Shown here: one piece after another, positions 451-59,626 of the stretch
Layout of the letters: every line of letters starts with the position of its first letter
Position numbering within the stretch: the first letter of the stretch is position 1
Source: Thermoplasmata archaeon
GTDB taxonomy: Archaea > Thermoplasmatota > SW-10-69-26 > JACQPN01 > JAJPHT01
Direction of reading: 5' to 3'
Assembly: GCA_034667685.1 (NCBI GenBank)
Contig: JAXDQU010000008.1
Location: 24,212-88,211 of the forward strand
Length of the DNA: 64,000 nucleotides
Program-made: the position numbers and the translations under genes
The notes under the pieces: generated by a model
What the model saw: only the letters and a program-made list of their open reading frames with translations
Told to the model about the DNA's origin: nothing
Database searches by the model: none

Positions 451-2331
451 TCAGTCGCGCGCCCGCTCGTCGTCGAACCCGAGGCGCTTGCGCGCGGCCT
501 GCCAGCGCTCCTTGAACGTGCGCGGGGCGAGGAATCCGTCGGCGCGCTCTTCCTCCGCGAGGAGGCGGCGCTCGACGCCCACGAGGTCGGTGCGCGTGAG
601 GATGCCCACGAGCCTGCGGCGGTCCTTGGCGTCCACCACGGGGAGGTGGCCCACGTCGAGGTGCACCATCTCGGTGAGGGCCTCGTGGGCGCTCGCTTCG
701 CGCGTGACGATGCTCGGGTCGGGCGTCATGAACTCGCGGACGGGCTTGTCGAGGTCGTCGTCCTTGACCTTCCTGCGCATGTCCGTGCTCGTCATGATGC
801 CCACGAGCCTGCTCTCGGCGTCGACGACGGGATAGCCCTGGTGGCCGGTGGCGAAGCGCTTCTCGACGAGCGCGCGCACGGGCGCGTCCTCGCGCACGGT
901 CTCCACGGGCGCGGACATGATCTCGCCCACGGTGACGAGGTCGAGGATGTTGGCGCTCGCGTCGGCCTCCAGGCTGCGCTCGCCGGCGTGCCCGCCGCGG
1001 AAGTAGGCGGGGGAGCCGTAGGCCTTGGCGAGGGCGTCGGCGACGACGATCGCGATCATGAGCGGGATGACGATGCTGAAGCTGTGCGTCATCTCGTAGA
1101 GCATGACGAGCGCGGTGAGGCTCGCGCGCGTGACGGCGGCGTAGACGGCCGCCATGCCCACGAGCGCGTAGGCGCCCGCGGTGCCCGTCCAGGTGGGGAA
1201 GGCGATGTGGACGAGCGCGCCGAAGATCCCGCCCAGCGCGCTGCCCAGGAAGAAGCTCGGGCTGAAGGCGCCGCTGGAGCCCGACGAGCCGCGCGTGATG
1301 GCGTAGGCGACGAGCTTGGCGAGGACGACGCCCGCGAGGAGCGTGACGACGAAGTTGCCTTGCAGCACCTCCTCGACGGTCTCGTAGCCCACGCCGAAGA
1401 CCTGCGGCGCCAGGAAGCCCACGAGGCCGATGAGCAGGCCGCCCCAGACGTGCGCGAGCCACTCGGGGCCCGGCAGGCTGGCGAAGAGCACGTCGGAGGC
1501 CGCGAGCAGGCGTGATAGCAGGATGGCGAGCAGGCCGCAGAGGATGCCCAGCAGCACGTAGAGGAACAGCTCGCGGCCGCTGACCAGCTCGTAGGCGGGG
1601 ATGGGGAACGCGGGCTGGTCGCCCAGGAAGTGCGTCGCGACGAGCGTGCCCATCGCGCTCGCCACGGTGAGCGGGATGAAGGCGCGCGTGCTCCACTCCA
1701 GGAGGATGACCTCCATGGCGAAGATGACGCCGGCGATGGGCGTGTTGAACGTCGCGCCGATGGCCGCCCCGCCGCCAGCGGCGAGCAGGAGCTTGCGGTG
1801 CCGCGCGCTGGCGCCCACGGCCAGGCTCGCGACCATCGCCAGCGCGGCGCCAAGCTGCACCATCGCCCCTTCGCGCCCCGCGCTGCCGCCCGTGCCCACC
1901 GAGAGGATCGTGCCCGTCGCGTGCCCGACGACCTTGCGCGGAGAGACCTCGCCGCGCTGCATCGCGACGCTGCGCACCACCTCGCTGCTGCCGCGGATGC
2001 GGTGGTCCTGCGAAAGGAATCGGACGACGACGTACGCCAACAGCGCGCCCACGGCGGGCACGAAGACGATCCAGAGGCCCAGCGCGTTGTCCACCGGGCT
2101 GCGGAACGTCAGGTCGACCTCGTCGCGGAACGCCACGTTCGTCACGAAGGCGATCGCGAGGCGCACGCCCACCGCGATCAGGCCCGTGCACGCGCCGATC
2201 AGCGCCGCCAGGAGGCTCGTCTCGGCCAGGTCGCGCAGGTACGCGGTGCCCGTCAAGGGACCCCGCGTCGTGCGCGCCACGCCGGCCATCACGCGGGCAT
2301 TGCGGGGGGCCGGCATGAAGGGCGCTCCCAC
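451..2331 (-). CDS. ClC-family voltage-gated chloride channel with C-terminal CBS domain pair
   Basis: about 10 TM helices; GSGAFSPS / GxFxP-type ClC selectivity-filter motifs; C-terminal tandem CBS domains. Confidence 0.85.
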   Translation of the reverse strand: MGAPFMPAPRNARVMAGVARTTRGPLTGTAYLRDLAETSLLAALIGACTGLIAVGVRLAIAFVTNVAFRDEVDLTFRSPVDNALGLWIVFVPAVGALLAYVVVRFLSQDHRIRGSSEVVRSVAMQRGEVSPRKVVGHATGTILSVGTGGSAGREGAMVQLGAALAMVASLAVGASARHRKLLLAAGGGAAIGATFNTPIAGVIFAMEVILLEWSTRAFIPLTVASAMGTLVATHFLGDQPAFPIPAYELVSGRELFLYVLLGILCGLLAILLSRLLAASDVLFASLPGPEWLAHVWGGLLIGLVGFLAPQVFGVGYETVEEVLQGNFVVTLLAGVVLAKLVAYAITRGSSGSSGAFSPSFFLGSALGGIFGALVHIAFPTWTGTAGAYALVGMAAVYAAVTRASLTALVMLYEMTHSFSIVIPLMIAIVVADALAKAYGSPAYFRGGHAGERSLEADASANILDLVTVGEIMSAPVETVREDAPVRALVEKRFATGHQGYPVVDAESRLVGIMTSTDMRRKVKDDDLDKPVREFMTPDPSIVTREASAHEALTEMVHLDVGHLPVVDAKDRRRLVGILTRTDLVGVERRLLAEEERADGFLAPRTFKERWQAARKRLGFDDERARD

Positions 2332-2420: not shown

Positions 2421-2927
2421 ATGATGCAATCCCCGTCTCGCCGCGCCATGCAGAGCCCCGGCCACAGCAGCGAGTTCGAGACGGTGGACCCCGCGCCCCT
2501 GGCGCCCGAGACCACCGTGCCGGAGCTGGAGGCGCGGCTCTTCGACACCAGGCTCAGCATGTTCCAGCGCTATCGCGCGCTCTTCTCGCTGCGGCACGTG
2601 GGGACCGAGGACGCGATCCGCGTGATCGCCCGGGCGATGTTCGAGGACGAGAGCGCGCTGGTGCGCCACGAGGCGGCCTACGTGCTCGGGCAGCTCCAGG
2701 GCGCGAAGGCGATCCCGTTCCTCGCGCGCCAGCTGGAGGAGGACCCCTCGCCGATGGTGCGCCACGAGGCGGCCGAGGCGCTGGGCAACATGTGGGACCA
2801 GACGGAGAAGGTCATCCCGATCCTGGAGAAGGCGCGCCAGCACGACCCGGCGCGCGAGGTGCGCGAGAGCTGCGAGGTGGCGCTCGACAACATCGCGTAC
2901 CTGAAGGACCCGACCCAGTTCGACTGA
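2421..2927 (+). CDS. HEAT-repeat protein, half-size deoxyhypusine hydroxylase (DOHH)-like
   Basis: two His-Glu iron-ligand motifs in HEAT repeats (VRHEAAYVLGQL, VRHEAAEALGNM); strong similarity to the N-terminal half of eukaryotic DOHH (RYRALFSLR..AI, AIPFL, EVRESCEVAL). Confidence 0.75.
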   Translation: MMQSPSRRAMQSPGHSSEFETVDPAPLAPETTVPELEARLFDTRLSMFQRYRALFSLRHVGTEDAIRVIARAMFEDESALVRHEAAYVLGQLQGAKAIPFLARQLEEDPSPMVRHEAAEALGNMWDQTEKVIPILEKARQHDPAREVRESCEVALDNIAYLKDPTQFD

Positions 2928-2975: not shown

Positions 2976-3443
2976 ATGATGGGACGCCCCCTCCTCGTCA
3001 TGCTGGCGCTCGCCGCGCTCCCCCTCGCCACGGCCGCGCCGCCCGAGGTGTACGCCGGCGAGGGGCCGCTCCACGGCAAGGCGTACTTCGACCCGCAGCT
3101 CACGTACGACGTCGCCTACACAGAGCCGGGCTCGACGGGCTGCGTCGCCCCGGTCTACCTCCAGTGCATCGTGGAGGGGCAGGTCACCGACATCAAGTGG
3201 ATCCGCATCGACATCGAGGGCAAGGGGAGCGCGGACTTCTTCGCCGACGCCGGCGCCAACACGCCCACCCTCGCCTACGGCTCGTGCGCCTCCACGCTGA
3301 CCTACGCGATGTGCATCTTCCCGCTCCGGCACGAGACGTGGGGCAATCTCCGCATGGTCGTCGACTCCACCAACGGCCAGGCGGGCACCGTCATCTCCGT
3401 CTACGCGGAGTCGGGCGCGACGCTCTTCGGGCAGATGCTGTAG
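2976..3443 (+). CDS. secreted hypothetical protein
   Basis: signal peptide MMGRPLLVMLALAALPLATAAP; protein-like composition. Confidence 0.6.
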   Translation: MMGRPLLVMLALAALPLATAAPPEVYAGEGPLHGKAYFDPQLTYDVAYTEPGSTGCVAPVYLQCIVEGQVTDIKWIRIDIEGKGSADFFADAGANTPTLAYGSCASTLTYAMCIFPLRHETWGNLRMVVDSTNGQAGTVISVYAESGATLFGQML

Positions 3444-7584: not shown

Positions 7585-8853
7585 TCATGGACGCCCCAGC
7601 ATCGCGCGCAGCGAGCCGGTGAGTTCGGGCCGCGCGAAACGATAGCCCGCGGCGAGGAGCTTCGTGGGCCTGGCGCGGCAGCTCGCCAGGAGCAGCTCGT
7701 CCGCCATCTCGCCCAGGCCCAGGCGCAGGGCGAAGGCGGGCTCCGGCAGGATCGCGGGCCGGCGCAGCGCGCGGGCCAGCGCGCGCGTGAAGTCCGCGTT
7801 GCGCACGGGGTGGGGCGCGACGACGAGGACGGGGCCCTCCAGCGCGGGCTCGCGCAGCGCGAAGGCGAGCGCGCCCACCACGTCCTCCAGGTCGACCCAG
7901 CTCCACCACGCGCGGCCCGACGCGATGCGCCCGCCCGCGCCCAGGCGGAAGGGCAGGAGGAGCTGCTTGAGCGCGCCGCCGCGCGGTGATAGCACGATGC
8001 CGAAGCGCGCCTGGACGACGCGCACGCCCATCCCCTCGGCGCGGCCGGCCTCGCGCTCCCACGCCTCGACGACGTCGGCCAGGAAGCCCGCGCCGCGCGG
8101 CGAGGTCTCATCGACCTCGGCTTCGCCCCGGTCGCCGTAGAAGCCGATGGCCGAGGCCGTGACGAGCGCGCGGACGCCGCTCCCCGCGAGGGCGTCGACG
8201 AGCGCGCGCGTGGGCTCGACGCGCGAGGCCAGGATCTCGCGCTTGCGCGCCTTCGTCCAGCGCTTCGAGATGCTCTCGCCCGCCAGGTGCACCACCGCGT
8301 CGAGCCCCGCGAGGTCCGACGCGCCCACGCGCCGCGGCAGCCGCACGACGCGGTGGCCCTGCCCGAGCAGGTGCGCGCGGAGCGCCGCGCCGATCATGCC
8401 GTGCGAGCCGGTGATGCCGATCGCCTGGGGCGCCACGCGCACGCCGGCCTCGCGCGCCGTCTTCTCGTGGCGCCAGCGGAACATGCGGTCGAGCCGGCGC
8501 CGGACGAGCGAGGGCGGGAGGAGCGACGACCACGCGATGCGGTCCTCCAGCCAGGTGCCGCCCGCGCCGTCGCTTCGGAACGTGTGCTCGTGGCGCCAGC
8601 GCCGGAACGGGCCGCGCGCCTGCTCGTCCACGAAGCCGTCGGGAATCGGCTCGTGCCGCGCGACCCACCGGAATCGGAGCGGGCCCGCGTGGACGCGGAA
8701 CGCCGCCTCGCCCGCGAGGCCCGCCGCCTCCCGCTCCACGTCCACGCGCTCCCAGGGCGGCGTCAGGCGCTCCAGCGCGCCGGGGCGCTCGTGCCACGCG
8801 CGGACGGCCTCGGGCGACGCGTCGAGGCGCGAGCGCAGGGTGAAGACGGGCAT
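7585..8853 (-). CDS. SRPBCC (START/polyketide-cyclase-like) domain fused to YfcH-type NAD-dependent epimerase (DUF1731)
   Basis: N-terminal SRPBCC fold, then Rossmann GITGSHGMIG and a C-terminal DUF1731-like region. Confidence 0.75.
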   Translation of the reverse strand: MPVFTLRSRLDASPEAVRAWHERPGALERLTPPWERVDVEREAAGLAGEAAFRVHAGPLRFRWVARHEPIPDGFVDEQARGPFRRWRHEHTFRSDGAGGTWLEDRIAWSSLLPPSLVRRRLDRMFRWRHEKTAREAGVRVAPQAIGITGSHGMIGAALRAHLLGQGHRVVRLPRRVGASDLAGLDAVVHLAGESISKRWTKARKREILASRVEPTRALVDALAGSGVRALVTASAIGFYGDRGEAEVDETSPRGAGFLADVVEAWEREAGRAEGMGVRVVQARFGIVLSPRGGALKQLLLPFRLGAGGRIASGRAWWSWVDLEDVVGALAFALREPALEGPVLVVAPHPVRNADFTRALARALRRPAILPEPAFALRLGLGEMADELLLASCRARPTKLLAAGYRFARPELTGSLRAMLGRP

Positions 8854-9756: not shown

Positions 9757-9827
9757 GCTCGGGGCTCTGGACTCAGGACTCCGGGCTCCGGAGCCCTGAG
9801 CCTGGAGTCCAGAGCCCCGAGCCCTCG
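9757..9827. repeat. intergenic palindromic repeat, family A copy 2
   Basis: GGCTCGGGGCTCTGGACTCAGGACTCCGGGCTCCGGAGCCCTGAGCCTGGAGTCCAGAGCCCCGAGCCC. Confidence 0.8.
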
Positions 9828-18361: not shown

Positions 18362-18730
18362 ATCCACCCCGCCTGGACGCGGGGCGAAAGGCACCGGCTA
18401 GGCTGGGGGGCCAGGCCTCCCCTGTCACCTGACACGGCCTTCATGCAGGAGCTGACACCCCGGGGCGGCGGCCCCAGGGCGGCCGGGAGCCCGGAACCGA
18501 CAATGAGACTTCGTCCCTCGTGGTCCGGGGCGCAAAGCACGCGCAAGCGGAAGCTTGCCGGGCGTGCCTTGCCACGGGAACCGGGTCAGGCGCGGAAGCG
18601 AGCAGCCTCACCGTGGACCAAGGACGTTCGTGGGGTCGCGGGGTCGAGAGAGTTCCGGGGTCACTCCCGTCCGTCGCTGACCGTCCACCCGGGAGGTCGA
18701 TGCCCGTCAAAACGCGTCCAAGCGGGGGGT
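18362..18730 (+). ncRNA. signal recognition particle RNA (7S/SRP RNA), boundaries approximate
   Basis: helix-8 motif GGUCAGGCGCGGAAGCGAGCAGCC at 18584-18607 matches the universal SRP RNA motif GGUCAGGUCCGGAAGGAAGCAGCC with compensatory changes and a GGAA tetraloop; 5' CCCCGCCUGGACGCG pairs with 3' CGCGUCCAAGCGGGG as terminal helix; followed by a hairpin CTGGGGGCTTTGCCCCCAG. Confidence 0.6.
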
Positions 18731-35916: not shown

Positions 35917-37734
35917 GTGGCCGACTCGGCGCACAAGGACCGCCTCCGCGACTTCTCCACCGACAAGCGCACGCTGCTCCTGTGCGCGCTGGCCCTCGTG
36001 GTCGGCCTCGCCGCGACGCTGCTGGCCTTCGCCCTCTCGTGGCTGATCGGCACCGTCACCAACCTCGTCTTCTACCAGCGCTGGCGCCACGACCTCGTCT
36101 CGCCGGGCGACGCGCACCTCGGGCTCTGGATCCTCGTCATTCCCGTGCTGGGCGGCCTCGTCATTGGCCTCATGGCGCGCTACGGCAGCGAGAAGATCCG
36201 CGGCCATGGCATCCCGGAGGCGCTGGAGAGCATCCTCCTGCGCGGCAGCCGCGTCGAGCCGAAAGTAACAGTCCTCAAGCCCGCGAGCGCCGCGATCAGC
36301 ATCGGCACCGGCGGCCCCTTCGGCGCGGAAGGCCCCATCATCATGACGGGCGGCGCCTCCGGCTCGCTCTTCGCGCAGTTCCTCAAGCTCACCGCCGCCG
36401 AGCGCAAGACGCTCTTGGTCGCGGGCGCGGCGGCCGGCATGAGCGCGACGTTCGGCGCCCCCCTCGCCGCGACGCTCCTGGCCGTCGAGCTCCTTCTCTT
36501 CGAATGGAAGCCGCGCAGCCTCCTGCCCGTCGCGCTGGCCAGCGTCGAGGCGAGCCTGCTGCGCGTGCCGCTCCTGGGCCCGGGCCCGCTCTTCCCCGTC
36601 GCCGCGCACGCCGCCGTCCCCTGGCAAGGCGTCGTCCTCGCGCTGGGCCTGGGCGTCGCCGCCGGATTGCTATCAGCCCTCCTCACGAAGCTCGTCTACC
36701 TCTTCGAGGACCTCTTCCAGAGGCTTCCGATCCACTGGATGTGGTGGCCCGCGATCGGCGGCCTCGCCATCGGGATCGGCGGCCTCGTCGAGCCCAAGGC
36801 GCTCGGCGTGGGCTACGACGTCATCGGCGGAATGCTATCCGGAAGCCTCCTGGGCACGGCGATCCTCGCCCTTCTCGTGACGAAGGTGCTCATCTGGAGC
36901 TTCTCGCTGGGCAGCGGCACCTCGGGCGGCGTGCTCGCACCGCTCCTCATGATGGGCGCCGCGCTGGGCGCTCTCCTGGGCCCGCTCCTGCCGGTGGGCA
37001 CGCCGGCGATCTGGGCGCTCGTCGCGATGGCGGGCATCATGGGCGGCACGATGCGCGTCCCGTTCACGGGCGTCTTCTTCGCGCTGGAGCTGACGCACGA
37101 CTGGACGCTCGCCGTGCCGATCTTCGTCGCGTGCCTCGCCGCCTACGGCACGACCGTGCTCCTGGTGCGCCGCAGCATCCTCACCGAGAAGCTCGCGCGC
37201 CGCGGCCACCACGTCATGCGCGAGTACGTCGTCGACCCGCTCGACATGCTGCGCGCCCACGAGGTCATGACGCCGGACGTGCAGGCGCTCCCCGCGAGCA
37301 TGCCCGTCGCGGACGCGATCGACTTCTTCCGCGGCACCGAGAAGGAGCCCGGCCGCCGCCCGCGCGTCCACCAGGGCTACCCCGTCGTCGACGCCGAGGG
37401 ACGCCTCGTCTCCGTCGTGACGCGCCGCGACGCGCTCGAATGGGCGCTCCAGCCCGTGCGCGCGGGCGAGACGCTCGCCGACCGCGCGCCCCCGCGCCTC
37501 CACACCATCGCCTCCGGCGCGCCCGCCAGCGAGGCCGCCAGCGTCATGGCGCGCGCCGGCGTCGGCCGCCTCCCCGTCCTCGACGAGCAGGGCAAGCTCG
37601 TGGGCATCCTCACGCGCACCGACCTCCTCGAAGGCCGCCTGCGCCGCATCCTCGAAGAGACGGACCGCGAGCGCGTGCTCAGGACGGGTGTTTCCGTGCT
37701 GCGCGATCGTTACCTCAAGCCGCTCGTGGAGTAG
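35917..37734 (+). CDS. ClC-family chloride channel with C-terminal CBS pair (second paralog)
   Basis: GSGTSGGVLAPLL and GxFxP-type ClC motifs; 10+ TM; two CBS domains. Confidence 0.85.
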   Translation: MADSAHKDRLRDFSTDKRTLLLCALALVVGLAATLLAFALSWLIGTVTNLVFYQRWRHDLVSPGDAHLGLWILVIPVLGGLVIGLMARYGSEKIRGHGIPEALESILLRGSRVEPKVTVLKPASAAISIGTGGPFGAEGPIIMTGGASGSLFAQFLKLTAAERKTLLVAGAAAGMSATFGAPLAATLLAVELLLFEWKPRSLLPVALASVEASLLRVPLLGPGPLFPVAAHAAVPWQGVVLALGLGVAAGLLSALLTKLVYLFEDLFQRLPIHWMWWPAIGGLAIGIGGLVEPKALGVGYDVIGGMLSGSLLGTAILALLVTKVLIWSFSLGSGTSGGVLAPLLMMGAALGALLGPLLPVGTPAIWALVAMAGIMGGTMRVPFTGVFFALELTHDWTLAVPIFVACLAAYGTTVLLVRRSILTEKLARRGHHVMREYVVDPLDMLRAHEVMTPDVQALPASMPVADAIDFFRGTEKEPGRRPRVHQGYPVVDAEGRLVSVVTRRDALEWALQPVRAGETLADRAPPRLHTIASGAPASEAASVMARAGVGRLPVLDEQGKLVGILTRTDLLEGRLRRILEETDRERVLRTGVSVLRDRYLKPLVE

Positions 37735-53305: not shown

Positions 53306-53371
53306 CTCGGGCTCTGGACTCGGGACTCAGGGCTCCGGAGCCCCGAGTCCAGAGTCCAGAGCCCCGAGCCC
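53306..53371. repeat. intergenic palindromic repeat, family A copy 3
   Basis: CTCGGGCTCTGGACTCGGGACTCAGGGCTCCGGAGCCCCGAGTCCAGAGTCCAGAGCCCCGAGCCC; overlaps and provides the 3' end and stop of the creatininase-family gene. Confidence 0.8.
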
Positions 53372-55223: not shown

Positions 55224-56365
55224 GCCTCGCGCCCGGCGCCACGCTCGGCATCCTGGGCGGAGGCCAGCTCGGGCGCATGATCGCGTTCGAGGCGCACCGC
55301 ATGGGCTACCGCGTCGCCATCCTCGACCCCGACCCGGACGGACCCGGGGCGCAGGTGGCGGACGACGTCGTCCTGGGCAAGTGGACCGACGCGAAGGCGG
55401 CCCTGGAGCTGGCGCGCCGCGCGGACGTCGTCACCGTCGAGACGGAGCACATCCCCTTCGAGGTCCTCGACGAGGTCGAGAAGGCCGGCGGCAACCTGCT
55501 CCCGCGCGCCGCGGTCCTGCGCACGATCCAGAACCGCCTGCGCCAGAAGGAGTTCCTCGCGCGGCACGGCTTCCCGCAGCCCGCGTTCGCGCACGTCACC
55601 GACGAGGCCTCGCTGCGCGCCGCGATATCAAACGTGGGCGCGCCCGCCGTGCTCAAGTCGCTCACCGGCGGCTACGACGGCAAGGGGCAGAGCCGCGCGC
55701 TCCAGGCGAGCGAGGCCGACGAGGCGTGGGCGCGCATCGGGCGCCAGCCGTGCATCGTCGAGTCGTTCGTCCCCTTCCGCGCGGAGGTCAGCGTCGTGCT
55801 CGCGCGCGGGCTCGACGGCCGCGTCGCGTACTACCCGCTCGCCGAGAACGTCCACCGCCACGGCATCCTGCACACGACGCGCGCGCCCGCCCGCGTCGAC
55901 CCCGCCGTCGCGCGCGAGGCGCAGCGGCTCGCGAAGGACGTCGCCAACGCGCTCGACCACGTGGGCGTCATGGCCGTCGAGATGTTCCTGCTGCCCGACG
56001 ACTCGCTCCAGATCAACGAGATCGCGCCGCGCGTCCACAACTCGGGCCACTACACGTACGGCGCGTGCGCCACCTCGCAGTTCGAGCAGCACCTCCGCGC
56101 CATCTGCGGCCAGCCGCTGGGCGACACGACGCTCCTGCGCCCCGCCGCCATGCTCAACCTGCTGGGCGATGCCTGGGCGCGCCGCGAGCCCGACTGGACG
56201 CGCGTCTTCGCCACGCCCGGCGCCGCGCTGCACCTCTACGGCAAGGCCGAGGCGCGCCCCGGCCGCAAGATGGGGCACGTGACCGTGACGGCCGAGCACA
56301 CGGACGACGCGCTCGCCAAGTGCGAGGCCATCCACGCCGCGCTGATGACGGACGCGGAGCTTTAG
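55220..56365 (+). CDS. purK: N5-carboxyaminoimidazole ribonucleotide synthase
   Basis: TTG start overlaps the purE stop (TTGA); ATP-grasp motifs ([27 protein letters not shown]). Confidence 0.85.
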
Positions 56366-56465
56366 TTCCAGAGCCCCGAGTCCGGAGTCCTGAGCCCGGA
56401 GCCTAACCTCCCAAGTGGGGTGCGAGGGCTCTGGGCTCAAGACTCCGGACTCGGGGCTCTGGAAC
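56366..56465. repeat. intergenic palindromic repeat, family A copy 4 (extended variant)
   Basis: GTTCCAGAGCCCCGAGTCCGGAGTCCTGAGCCCGGAGCC ... GGCTCTGGGCTCAAGACTCCGGACTCGGGGCTCTGGAAC with a 23-nt central loop. Confidence 0.8.
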
Positions 56466-56502: not shown

Positions 56503-57096
56503 TTGGAGCCGGGCCTCGCATCGTGGGCCGTGGACAAGATCACGTTGGATCGCGCGGCGTTCAAGGCGCTCGCGTCCGACACGCGGCTGGACATCCTGAA
56601 GGCGCTCGACGCGCGCCAGAAGACCGTGACCGAGCTGGCGCGCGAGCTGGACCTCAACAAGGCCACCGTCTTCGAGCACCTGGAGAAGCTCGCCGAGGTG
56701 GGCCTGATCCAGAAGATCGAGGAGGACGTCGAGCGAAAGTGGGTCTACTGGCAGCTCTCGTGGAAGGGGCGCCGGCTCCTGCATCCGGAGGCGATCACGT
56801 TCTCGCTCCTGCTCTCGACCGCGCTGGGCACGCTGCTGACCGGCGCCGCGGCGCTCTGGATCTGGTGGAAGAGCGCCATCCTGCCCACGAGCGGCGCGGA
56901 GGGCGCCTCCCAGCCCACCGGGGCCGCCGCGCCGCGCGCGTTCGCCGCCCCCGCGCCCGAGCCCCCCGTCGCCGCGGCGCCCGCGCACGATCCGACCTAC
57001 CTGTGGGTCGCGGCGGCGCTGGGCGCGCTGCTCCTCGTCCTGATCCTCGGCGCGTGGTGGGTCAAGGCCCGCGCGCGCAAGCTCAGCGCGTCGTGA
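56503..57096 (+). CDS. membrane-tethered ArsR-type wHTH regulator
   Basis: N-terminal HTH (ALASDTRLDILKALDARQKTVTELARELDLNKATVFEHLEKLAEVGLI), then two to three TM helices and a Pro/Ala-rich spacer. Confidence 0.6.
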   Translation: MEPGLASWAVDKITLDRAAFKALASDTRLDILKALDARQKTVTELARELDLNKATVFEHLEKLAEVGLIQKIEEDVERKWVYWQLSWKGRRLLHPEAITFSLLLSTALGTLLTGAAALWIWWKSAILPTSGAEGASQPTGAAAPRAFAAPAPEPPVAAAPAHDPTYLWVAAALGALLLVLILGAWWVKARARKLSAS

Positions 57097-57682
57097 GGTC
57101 GCCCTGGTCCAGGATGATGACGCCCGTGCGCAGGGAGTCGACTTCCTCCTGGGTGAGCGCCCGACGCTCGACCTTCTCGGCGAGGATGGCGCTGTTGCCG
57201 AACGGGTCGTCGATGATGAGCGTGAAGGGGATCTCGCCCGCGAGCATCTTCTCGTAGCGCATGAGGTACTCCTGGAGCAGGGCGACCTTCTCCGGGTCCT
57301 CGCCGTGGAACTCCAGCGCGGTGAGCAGCACGTCCTTCGCGCGGTCCAGGACGCCCTCGACGTTGGAGACGTAGCTCTCGGAGAGCGGCGAGGGCTCGGC
57401 CGTGAACCCCATCTCCGGGATGCGGATCGTGCCCGAGTTGCTCCGGATCACGCGGATCGTGAGGTCCTCCTCCCCGTTCGCGTGCAGCGTCAGCCGCAGC
57501 GGGTCCTTCTGGCCGAGGATCATGAAGTCCGCGTGCCGGAAGCCGCACGCGCCGCAGCGCATCGTCGTCTCCAGCGCGTCGCCGAAGTACGGGACGTTGA
57601 CGGACGTGCTCAGCAGCGTCAGCTGGCCCACGACGCGGCACATCGGACAGGGCGTGTTGACCGGGACCGCGGATGCGCTCAC
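57083..57682 (-). CDS. ZPR1-type zinc-finger protein
   Basis: CPMC ... CGACGF C4 zinc finger, then a ZPR1-like beta-rich domain; GTG start assumed. Confidence 0.55.
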   Translation of the reverse strand: MSASAVPVNTPCPMCRVVGQLTLLSTSVNVPYFGDALETTMRCGACGFRHADFMILGQKDPLRLTLHANGEEDLTIRVIRSNSGTIRIPEMGFTAEPSPLSESYVSNVEGVLDRAKDVLLTALEFHGEDPEKVALLQEYLMRYEKMLAGEIPFTLIIDDPFGNSAILAEKVERRALTQEEVDSLRTGVIILDQGDLTTR

Positions 57683-57726
57683 GTGGCGCGCGAGCCCTCC
57701 TTTTCGCTTAATGGTTCTGTGGATCC

Positions 57727-57812
57727 GGCCTCGGGCTCGGGGCTCTGGACTCAGGACTCTGGGCTCCGGAGCCCTGAGTCCAGAGTCCTGAGTCCAGAGC
57801 CCCTCGGCGCGC
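57727..57812. repeat. intergenic palindromic repeat, family A copy 5
   Basis: GGCCTCGGGCTCGGGGCTCTGGACTCAGGACTCTGGGCTCCGGAGCCCTGAGTCCAGAGTCCTGAGTCCAGAGCCCC. Confidence 0.8.
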
Positions 57813-57875
57813 CATTTTGAAAACACGATGTTTAAGAGGCTCGTGCGAATGATACGGTTCGCAAGGGATGCACGC

Positions 57876-58421
57876 ATGGCCTTTCTCGACAAGCTGATCG
57901 GCGGCAACAACGCCAACGGGCGCCGCCCCGCGGAGGGCGGCAACGACCGCACGTACATCGATCTCTCCGATTTCGCCGCCGCCGAGAAGACCGGCGAGGG
58001 CGCCGCCAGCACGTGGGTCCGCTTCGCGGAGCTTCGCGCGCTCGACGACCTCAAGCAGTTCTCGTCGTACGTCTACGACGGCAACCTGCTCATCCTGGAC
58101 TTCAGCAAGGTGCAGGGCGACGAGATCCTCCTGCGCCGCCTGACCAACGAGCTCCGCAAGCTCGCGCAGGACACTGGCGGCGACATCGCGGGCCTGGGCG
58201 ACCACCACATCCTCCTGACGCCCACCGGCGTGAAGGTCGACCGCAAGCGCCTCACCGCGACGAAGGGCGACGACGCCGAGCCGCAGCACGTGCCGCGGAC
58301 GTCCGCCTCCCCGCCCGCCGCCCCGGCGCCGGCCCCCCTGGTCGCTCCCGCTCCGGCGACGGCCAACGCGCCCCCGGCCCGGACGAATGGCGGCACGGGC
58401 CGCCGCATGGCGAACAAGTGA
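57876..58421 (+). CDS. sepF: cell-division protein SepF (DUF552) with a Pro/Ala-rich C-terminal tail
   Basis: SepF core YIDLSDFAAAEKTGEGAASTWVRFAELRALDDLKQFSSYVYDGNLLILDFSKV ... ILLTPTGVKVD; alternative upstream ATG at 57828. Confidence 0.7.
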   Translation: MAFLDKLIGGNNANGRRPAEGGNDRTYIDLSDFAAAEKTGEGAASTWVRFAELRALDDLKQFSSYVYDGNLLILDFSKVQGDEILLRRLTNELRKLAQDTGGDIAGLGDHHILLTPTGVKVDRKRLTATKGDDAEPQHVPRTSASPPAAPAPAPLVAPAPATANAPPARTNGGTGRRMANK

Positions 58422-58508: not shown

Positions 58509-58531
58509 GCGGCCTCGGCCGGGTGAACCTC

Positions 58532-59077
58532 ATGGCGAAGATCAAGATCGAGAACGTCGTCGCGTCGACCTCCATCGGCACGGAGTTGGACTTGCAGTCC
58601 ATCGCCCTGGCGCTGGACAACGCGGAGTACGAGCCCGAGCAGTTCCCCGGCCTCGTCTGCCGCCTGAAGGACCCGAAGACGGCAGCGCTGCTCTTCCGCA
58701 GCGGCAAGGTCGTCTGCACCGGCGCGAAGTCCATCGACGCGGTGGGCAAGGCCGTCGACATCGTCACGGCCAAGATCGAGGCCAGCGGCGTGAAGGTCGA
58801 CCGCAACCCCGAGATCACCGTCCAGAACATCGTCGCCTCGGCCGACCTGCACAGCGAGCTGAACCTCAACGCCATCGCCATCGGCCTTGGCCTCGAGAAG
58901 GTGGAGTACGAGCCCGAGCAGTTCCCCGGCCTCGTCTACCGCCTGGACGACCCCAAGGTGGTCGTCCTCCTGTTCGGCTCGGGCAAGCTCGTCTGCACCG
59001 GCGCCCGCAAGCCTGAAGACGCGGAGCGCGCCGTCGACAAGATCACCGAAGAGCTCCAGGCGCTCGGGCTGCTCTGA
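58532..59077 (+). CDS. tbp: TATA-box-binding protein (TBP), copy 1
   Basis: canonical archaeal TBP N-terminus [12 protein letters not shown]; two TBP direct repeats (QNIVASADL..., PGLVYRL...). Confidence 0.9.
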
Positions 59078-59080
59078 ACC

Positions 59081-59626
59081 TTGGCGACCATCAAGATCGA
59101 GAACGTCGTGGCCTCCCTCTCCCTGGGCGTCCAGCTGGACCTCCAGGCGATCGCGCTGGCGCTCGACAACGCGGAGTATTCGCCCGAGCAGTTCCCCGGC
59201 CTCGTCTGCCGCCTGAAGGACCCGAAGACCGCGGCGCTGCTCTTCCGCAGCGGCAAGGTCGTCTGCACCGGCGCCAAGAGCATCGAGGCCGTCGGCCGCG
59301 CGGTCGACATCGTCACCTCGCGCATCGAGGCCAGCGGCGTCAAGGTCGACCGCAACCCCGTCATCACGGTCCAGAACATCGTCGCGTCCGCGGACCTCCA
59401 TGCCGAGCTGAACCTCAACGCCATCGCCATCGGCCTTGGCCTGGAGAAGGTCGAGTACGAGCCCGAGCAGTTCCCGGGCCTCGTCTACCGCATGGACGAT
59501 CCCAAGGTCGTCGTGCTCCTCTTCGGCAGCGGCAAGCTCGTCTGCACCGGCGCCAAGCGGCCCGAGGACGCGGAGCGCGCCGTGGACAAGATCACCGAGG
59601 AGCTCAAGGCGCTCGGGCTGCTCTAA
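59081..59626 (+). CDS. tbp: TATA-box-binding protein (TBP), copy 2 (tandem paralog)
   Basis: TTG start 3 nt after the copy-1 stop; about 85-90% identical to copy 1. Confidence 0.85.
   Translation: MATIKIENVVASLSLGVQLDLQAIALALDNAEYSPEQFPGLVCRLKDPKTAALLFRSGKVVCTGAKSIEAVGRAVDIVTSRIEASGVKVDRNPVITVQNIVASADLHAELNLNAIAIGLGLEKVEYEPEQFPGLVYRMDDPKVVVLLFGSGKLVCTGAKRPEDAERAVDKITEELKALGLL

Follow-up and report, generated by a model that had tools for sequence, protein, structure and literature searches.

Hypusine in the translation factor IF5A is essential in eukaryotes, and how this modification is completed in archaea has been a long-standing question. The diiron centre of human deoxyhypusine hydroxylase (DOHH) is anchored by H56, H89, E90, H207, H240 and E241, and the deoxyhypusine side chain is bound by E57, E90, E208 and E241 together with two glycines (review PMC9117371). 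Deoxyhypusine synthase (DHS) is encoded in all sequenced archaeal genomes (PMC5178350), and papers from 2016 to 2018 found no DOHH orthologue in any archaeal genome (PMC5178350, PMC6105217), nor a DOHH-like protein in Sulfolobus (PMC6105217). Here we describe a half-size DOHH homolog of 168 amino acids (aa), encoded by an open reading frame (ORF) at positions 2421..2927 of the plus strand (ATG to TGA, 168 codons and a stop) in a 64,000-nucleotide stretch of DNA from a Thermoplasmata archaeon (GCA_034667685.1, contig JAXDQU010000008.1, positions 24,212 to 88,211), hereafter the window. The HEAT-repeat fold is shared with eukaryotic DOHH (human 4D4Z, yeast Lia1, Drosophila nero), either half of which is 41-50% identical to the archaeal protein; the latter differs in length, having one domain of four repeats in 168 aa where the eukaryotic enzyme has eight repeats in one chain of about 300 aa. 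What is new, judging from these comparisons, is a single-domain, presumably homodimeric, archaeal form of a known enzyme.

In a phmmer comparison with PDB sequences, the best match of the 168-aa protein was human DOHH (4d4z, E=1.6e-53, 184 bits). Natural HEAT proteins other than DOHH reached at most about 20 bits (YibA, 1oyz, E=0.005; CpcE, 5n3u, E=0.007; MTH187, 1te4, E=0.04), leaving a gap of 160 bits between DOHH and any of them. Among 5.8 billion proteins, the top matches were about 60 proteins of 154-192 aa with 60-90% identity to the window protein, directly followed by eukaryotic DOHHs of about 290 aa with 45-50% identity, and when 1.84 billion cluster representatives were scanned exhaustively with HMMER, the ranking was the same, the archaeal half-size family first and the eukaryotic DOHHs after it. 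An exact-sequence look-up of the window protein gave no record. The short HEAT-like repeat type (HEAT_PBS, HEAT_2) is common to this protein, to PBS-lyase HEAT-like proteins (CpcE/CpcF, NblB, YibA, MTH187) and to artificial alphaRep chains, which in HMMER alignments carry Arg or Tyr at the positions of the query His-Glu motifs. Pfam matched the window protein to generic repeats only (HEAT_2, HEAT_PBS and HEAT), and the scores of 75.5 bits for HEAT_2 (cut-off 27.7) and 47.2 bits for HEAT_PBS (cut-off 20.9) indicate the fold class and are uninformative about function. Such generic matches are expected, because neither Pfam nor NCBIfam returned a DOHH-specific family for this protein. The NCBIfam bilin-lyase equivalogs scored 15-25 bits against cut-offs of 220-600 (NblB 24.5 vs. 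300, CpcF 19.6 vs. 220, CpcE 15.5 vs. 330 bits), placing the window protein 10 to 40 times below them. A first reading of this DNA made without database searches (the sequence-only reading) had named the protein a DOHH homolog rather than a generic PBS-lyase HEAT protein, and the E-value, the 45-50% identity and the low bilin-lyase scores bear this out; the motifs that it quoted (RYRALFSLRHVG, ALVRHEAAYVLGQLQ..AIPFL, MVRHEAAEALGNM and EVRESCEVAL) are all found in the ORF translation.

Existing annotation of the relatives is split, with NCBI using 'HEAT repeat domain-containing protein' or 'putative lyase' and JGI using 'deoxyhypusine monooxygenase' for many of them. As far as could be searched, the DOHH similarity of half-size proteins has been picked up by software, yet seemingly never described or interpreted, and no report of an archaeal or half-size DOHH was found in the searchable literature up to 2026, a search outside which most subscription journals lie.

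The archaeal protein and eukaryotic DOHH have in common the His-Glu motifs and their spacing, the substrate-binding Glu and Gly, and a VDPAP/linker segment. In the alignment to 4d4z, the first His-Glu motif, H83-E84 (2667..2672, plus strand), corresponds to human H56/H207 and E57/E208, and the second, H115-E116 within MVRHEAAEALG (2763..2768, plus strand), to H89/H240 and E90/E241, that is, to the human pairs H89-E90 and H240-E241. G90 of the LGQ motif (2688..2690, plus strand) corresponds to the substrate-binding LGQ glycines of the human enzyme, which are G63/G214 by alignment and are printed as G65 and G214 in PMC9117371. One half's catalytic set is complete in this protein, which has a counterpart for each of the six iron ligands as well as for the Glu and Gly that bind the substrate, and the two histidines are 32 residues apart vs. 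33 in human DOHH. The N-terminal tail motif V22-D23-P24-A25-P26 (2484..2498, plus strand) is homologous to the 'SVDPAP' inter-domain linker of eukaryotic DOHH. A second homolog search gave 115 half-size relatives of 140-195 aa, with pairwise core identity down to 45%, and H83, E84, G90, H115 and E116 are invariant in every one (115/115). The five catalytic positions are likewise invariant in 120/120 sequences of a second half-size group, described below as group B; in all, 235 archaeal sequences keep the metal and substrate residues without change. The two His-Glu pairs, of the four in DOHH, that the sequence-only reading had seen in the translation are present as H83-E84 and H115-E116, and the outcome that would have told against it, a generic HEAT protein without conserved pairs, is not what the orthologs and group B show. 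Because each chain has two such motifs and not four, the window protein must oligomerise to form a diiron site; the full DOHH set of four would require a dimer.

The half size is native, as had been supposed at the outset: the protein is one four-repeat domain, a divergent gene lies upstream, the 115 relatives are all of 140-195 aa, and tblastn of the window and the fetched contigs found one half-DOHH copy per contig. A second half or a paralog, with which the protein might form a heterodimer, was not found by tblastn in the window or in any fetched contig. The G+C content at third codon positions (GC3) of the half-DOHH ORF is 0.98, matching that of other credible genes in the window (G+C 71.7%), and the ratio of nonsynonymous to synonymous substitution rates (dN/dS) against close orthologs is 0.2-0.3; the gene is under purifying selection.

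We propose that the gene probably encodes a single-domain, four-HEAT-repeat, homodimeric diiron hydroxylase of deoxyhypusinated archaeal IF5A (aIF5A), in a form that predates the duplication seen in eukaryotes. Two identical subunits would pack face to face, as do the N and C domains of eukaryotic DOHH, each giving His83, His115 and Glu116 to one of the two irons and so making up the six ligands of an oxo/peroxo-bridged diiron centre, and Glu84 and Gly90 of each subunit would grip the deoxyhypusine side chain. The diiron centre would activate O2 and hydroxylate C2 of the 4-aminobutyl group on the deoxyhypusine of aIF5A, yielding hypusine. Such a homodimer would represent the state preceding tandem duplication and fusion into the eight-repeat eukaryotic enzyme, and the archaeal VDPAP N-terminal tail would have become the eukaryotic inter-domain linker. 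That the protein dimerises, binds iron, needs O2 and acts on aIF5A, and in which direction evolution ran, we infer from sequence comparison.

Structure models made with AlphaFold2 (AF2) placed the helices of the 168-aa protein at approximately residues 33-40, 47-60, 63-75, 79-91, 97-107, 111-122, 125-141 and 145-162. When a tandem fusion of two copies was folded without an alignment, the halves had pLDDT values of 80-95, with a pTM of 0.48 and a template modelling (TM) score of about 0.5 to 4d4z. For a guided tandem model, the first copy was tail-less, the second kept its tail as the linker, and the alignment consisted of 46 eukaryotic DOHHs. This model reached pLDDT 94.6 and pTM 0.92, all four His-Glu pairs lie on invariant alignment columns, and it superposes on 4d4z with TM scores of 0.87/0.91 and a root-mean-square deviation of 2.2 Å, all other PDB folds staying below TM 0.5. 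Because its arrangement is inherited from the eukaryotic alignment, the guided tandem is no independent evidence of a dimer; at the level of the models, two archaeal copies are compatible with the DOHH clam-shell.

Both halves of human DOHH align to the archaeal protein, query residues 30-162 to human 9-138 in the N half (87.2 bits) and query residues 18-157 to human 148-284 in the C half (98.4 bits; phmmer vs. 4d4z). Against 165 eukaryotic DOHHs, the archaeal profile gave a mean of 138.7 bits with the C half vs. 109.2 bits with the N half, the C half scoring higher in 156/165. An almost residue-for-residue match to the N-terminal half had been claimed from the sequence; the homology is real and both halves align, but the alignment to the C-terminal half is somewhat the better one. 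The excess is in part due to the VDPAP tail (residues 22-26), which matches the eukaryotic inter-domain linker. D23 and P24 of this tail are invariant in 32 diverse archaeal members, as the D and P of the linker are in 46 eukaryotic DOHHs, and the motif is missing in the eukaryotic N half and in archaeal group B. In the repeat core, identities are 45% between the window's archaeal group (group A) and the C half, 41% between group A and the N half, and 39-40% between the N and C halves, so that N and C differ more from one another than either does from the archaeal protein. Of the columns diagnostic for N vs. C, 4 are C-like in the archaeal protein and 2 are N-like.

Neighbour-joining trees were computed for 32 non-redundant archaeal sequences together with the separate halves of 25 eukaryotic DOHHs that evolve slowly. 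Three clean groups were obtained, with bootstrap support of 0.885 (archaeal), 0.935 (N) and 0.895 (C), and the archaeal clade falls outside both eukaryotic half-clades; because of this clean separation, the archaeal proteins are not a recent offshoot of the C half. That a eukaryotic C half was transferred and truncated recently was ruled out, as the archaeal clade is not nested in the C halves. When group B was added, the best tree paired A with B and N with C (67% bootstrap), the pairing of A with C and B with N was found in 17% and that of A with N and B with C in 1%. Signature columns for the rooting were nearly uninformative, with one for the A-B and N-C arrangement and none for the alternatives. 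The columns in which one group deviates alone from the other three number 0 for the A consensus, 10 for B, 6 for N and 4 for C, and the diversity within the archaeal groups equals in depth that within the eukaryotic halves. On a distance basis, these results give moderate support to a duplication of the N and C halves after their split from the archaeal half-size forms and, equally moderately, to group A as the closest prokaryotic relative of eukaryotic DOHH. The idea of an ancestral single-half form, already present in the sequence-only reading, is moderately supported by the position of the archaeal clade outside both halves and by the pairing of N with C (0.67) in the presence of group B.

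Group B was recovered by a metagenome scan with the archaeal alignment, along with group-A genes and eukaryotic full-length genes. Carriers of group A are uncultured Thermoplasmatota-type metagenome-assembled genomes (MAGs). Group-A-like half-DOHHs with VDPAP and ESCEVAL and 49-50% identity were also seen on contigs of about 52% GC (loci L032-L035, e.g. L032 7977-8444), and the flanking genes of L032 include PriS primase, MetRS and a P-type ATPase, its contig being archaeal. Since such genes occur on contigs of about 52% GC, group A is not confined to the window's high-GC lineage.

Group B proteins, 148-180 aa in length, have two RHE motifs and the LGQ glycine. They differ from the window's group in lacking the VDPAP tail and in having FSAEIAL where group A has ESCEVAL; against the group-A profile they reach about 95-100 bits, with a core identity of only about 40-45%, and their distances to eukaryotic DOHH are 1.37-1.39 vs. 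0.85-0.95 for group A. A homolog search with a group-B member showed the group to be widespread in TACK archaea, named sources being Thermoprotei, Ca. Marsarchaeota (G2 OSP_D), Nitrososphaerales, Nitrosopumilus, Ca. Nitrosocosmicus and Ca. Caldarchaeum, with Aigarchaeota also among the carriers. A group-B homolog (WP_232037969.1) is encoded by Ca. Nitrosocosmicus franklandus, an ammonia oxidiser in culture, and the Marsarchaeota half-DOHH gene lies near a COX1 oxidase. Aerobic life prevails in the ammonia-oxidising Thaumarchaeota, Marsarchaeota and Caldarchaeum lineages, in keeping with a dependence of the enzyme on O2. The hot-spring members of group B have a conserved ending, ...FSK.TGG; on TACK-type metagenome contigs (L045, L052/L057/L079, L071, L087 and L089; at about 8340-8500 in the long loci), the proteins end in a conserved ...(E/R)FSK(K/L/I)(T/V)GG before the stop codon, a C-terminal di-glycine that is reminiscent of ubiquitin-like modifiers. 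In Ca. Caldarchaeum (L097 5115-6504), the group-B gene stands divergently beside a ThiS/Urm1-like gene, Cgi121 and Sua5.

Descent from a eukaryotic-type enzyme was weighed against the ancestral placement, namely that the protein is the C half plus linker of a duplicated eukaryotic-type DOHH, acquired by horizontal transfer, reduced by truncation or fission and then spread among archaea. The higher scores against C halves (138.7 vs. 109.2 bits), the VDPAP tail as the linker that precedes the C half, the 4 to 2 majority of C-like diagnostic columns, the 17% of bootstraps joining A with C and B with N, and the patchy distribution of carriers among archaea speak for it. It is nevertheless unlikely in our view, as the archaeal clade lies outside a monophyletic C-half clade (0.895), N and C pair at 0.67 once group B is added, the core identity of A to N (41%) exceeds that of C to N (39-40%), the archaeal groups are as deeply diverse as the eukaryotic halves, and the more distant group B of TACK archaea could hardly have come from the C half of a eukaryotic enzyme. 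Still less to be expected is a homodimeric, DOHH-derived diiron oxygenase acting on another substrate, such as a free or conjugated polyamine or some other aminobutylated or lysine-modified protein. The equivalents of E57/E208 and G63/G214 are invariant in 235/235 archaeal sequences, 45-50% identity to a highly substrate-specific enzyme usually means that function is kept, and deoxyhypusinated aIF5A exists in all archaea (PMC5178350); set against this are neighbourhoods with no link to dhs or aIF5A and with varying content (VIT1 iron transporter in L005, ThiS/Urm1 with Cgi121 and Sua5 in Caldarchaeum), and the report of mainly deoxyhypusine in cultured Thermoplasmales.

The chemistry itself could differ if the protein were a monomer with mononuclear iron, held by His83, His115 and Glu116 as a 2-His-1-carboxylate triad, and acting unlike diiron DOHH. 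Each half does offer two His and one Glu ligand, and two His plus one carboxylate form the formal ligand set of mononuclear non-heme iron oxygenases; the tandem model folded from a single sequence also lacked confident inter-domain packing. We hold this to be very unlikely, since no co-substrate-binding motif is evident and the ligands in solved DOHH are found on the concave face, where the opposing domain supplies the rest of the set, in agreement with the tandem model at TM about 0.9. Moreover, the family is defined by a diiron site held between two layers of repeats (PMC9040561, PMC9117371). A non-catalytic scaffold or adaptor of the HEAT/PBS-lyase type, resembling DOHH through repeat composition only, would be in keeping with the generic Pfam matches and the NCBI names of the relatives. 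Those matches are, however, expected where no DOHH family is returned, and with the 160-bit gap to natural non-DOHH HEAT proteins, bilin-lyase equivalogs far under their cut-offs and metal and substrate residues invariant across 235 sequences, the probability of a scaffold is close to negligible.

Several observations weigh against the proposed homodimeric hydroxylase of aIF5A and its ancestral position. Both dhs and aIF5A are absent from the 64-kb window, as judged by Pfam scans of ORFs of suitable size and by looking for the hypusine-loop motif in all six frames, and the half-DOHH adjoins dhs or aIF5A in none of about 20 inspected neighbourhoods; because no neighbourhood links the gene to either, its function is assigned by homology alone. 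The domain arrangement was not recovered without the eukaryotic alignment (pTM 0.48, TM about 0.5), and the rooting depends on neighbour joining at 67% bootstrap, with signature columns that say next to nothing. Early amino-acid analyses gave mainly deoxyhypusine in Euryarchaeota, including Thermoplasmales (PMC5178350), although no cultured Thermoplasma is among the named half-DOHH matches listed. The same paper reports hypusine for Thermoproteus, Pyrodictium and other Crenarchaea. Thermoproteus and Pyrodictium are strict anaerobes, and because hypusine occurs in such anaerobic Crenarchaea and the enzyme would be O2-dependent, the half-DOHH is not a universal archaeal route to hypusine.

A broader reading takes in all the carriers, that is, soil and marine Thermoplasmatota, ammonia-oxidising Thaumarchaeota, Aigarchaeota and Marsarchaeota. 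It is possible, and we stop just short of calling it probable, that many aerobic archaea make true hypusine by a homodimeric half-size diiron DOHH of the type directly ancestral, before duplication, to eukaryotic DOHH. If this is true, the eukaryotic enzyme arose when an archaeal gene of this kind was duplicated in tandem and fused, the VDPAP tail turning into the linker; archaea have then been wrongly described as lacking DOHH, and they reach hypusine by at least two routes, this O2-dependent one and, in Crenarchaea, an anaerobic one that is unknown. A half-size DOHH in several archaeal phyla would supply a concrete candidate enzyme for archaeal hypusine, and it bears on the origin of the eukaryotic hypusine pathway. 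It would also exemplify a diiron site formed across a homodimer interface and later fused into a pseudo-symmetric enzyme, and the minimal half-size scaffold could interest engineers of HEAT-repeat metalloenzymes. The group-B homolog in cultured Ca. Nitrosocosmicus franklandus makes the archaeal hypusine question directly testable.

The DNA of the window is confirmed as archaeal by an archaeal signal recognition particle (SRP) RNA at 18391-18703, by genes for Hjc resolvase, two TATA-binding proteins (TBP) and archaeal RNase J (aRNase J), and by synteny with MAG contigs labelled Thermoplasmatota. Eukaryotic contamination is ruled out by the GC3 of 0.98, the archaeal flanking genes and synteny in at least four independent assemblies. 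Upstream of the half-DOHH gene, across a spacer of 89 bp, lies a divergent gene for a CLC channel with CBS domains, and close relatives have the conserved order CLC channel, half-DOHH, GGPP synthase, aRNase J; a contig of 128 kb or more carries an ortholog whose arrangement and gene length equal those of the window. This synteny is restricted to close relatives, the neighbours in distant members being unrelated (VIT1, HxlR, COX1, ThiS/Cgi121/Sua5). Contig JAJPHT010000023.1 (GCA_021325135.1), labelled 'Proteobacteria bacterium Centralia_MAG_189', has a half-DOHH that is 90% identical and the same gene order as the window; because it is syntenic over CLC channel, half-DOHH, GGPP synthase and archaeal RNase J, its label or binning is wrong. 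In GCA_016207515.1 (L005 7128-8465; L006 255-1595), a divergent group-A half-DOHH (P0107) is located immediately downstream of a VIT1-family iron/manganese transporter gene on the same strand, an arrangement that may hint at a link with iron supply but was observed in no other lineage.

Directly downstream of the half-DOHH gene in the window, a 155-aa ORF (2976-3443, plus strand) encodes a protein with a hydrophobic, signal-peptide-like N-terminus. Pfam gave no match for this ORF, and in a syntenic MAG its position is held by a 157-aa gene (L007 10901-11374). The divergent CLC gene (451-2331, minus strand) has a paralog in the window at 35917-37734 on the plus strand, and both encode CLC chloride channels with a CBS pair at the C-terminus.

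The divergent spacer just upstream of the half-DOHH gene is filled by a GC-rich, near-perfect palindromic hairpin (2332-2406), one of several such hairpins of about 60-100 nt in the window (9758-9821, ~53310-53370, ~56365-56462 and ~57730-57800). They are built of degenerate 7-mers (CTCGGGG, CTCTGGA, CTCAGGA and others); a 28-nt core occurs 3 times vs. 0 expected, and the 10-mer CTCGGGGCTC 11 times vs. 0.72 expected. This 10-mer was not found at the orthologous loci of the related MAGs L007, L023, L002 and L003, and the hairpins look like a lineage-specific element resembling repetitive extragenic palindromes (REP) or miniature inverted-repeat transposable elements (MITE). An ORF at 57083-58054 (minus strand) has ZPR1 zinc-finger and ZPR1 jelly-roll domains, a family best known from eukaryotes; because the palindromic element at ~57730-57800 lies inside its 5' part, the true start may be further downstream. 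The two TBP genes are arranged in tandem on the same strand (58523-59077 and 59081-59626), 3 bp apart, and both are full-length with two TBP repeats each.

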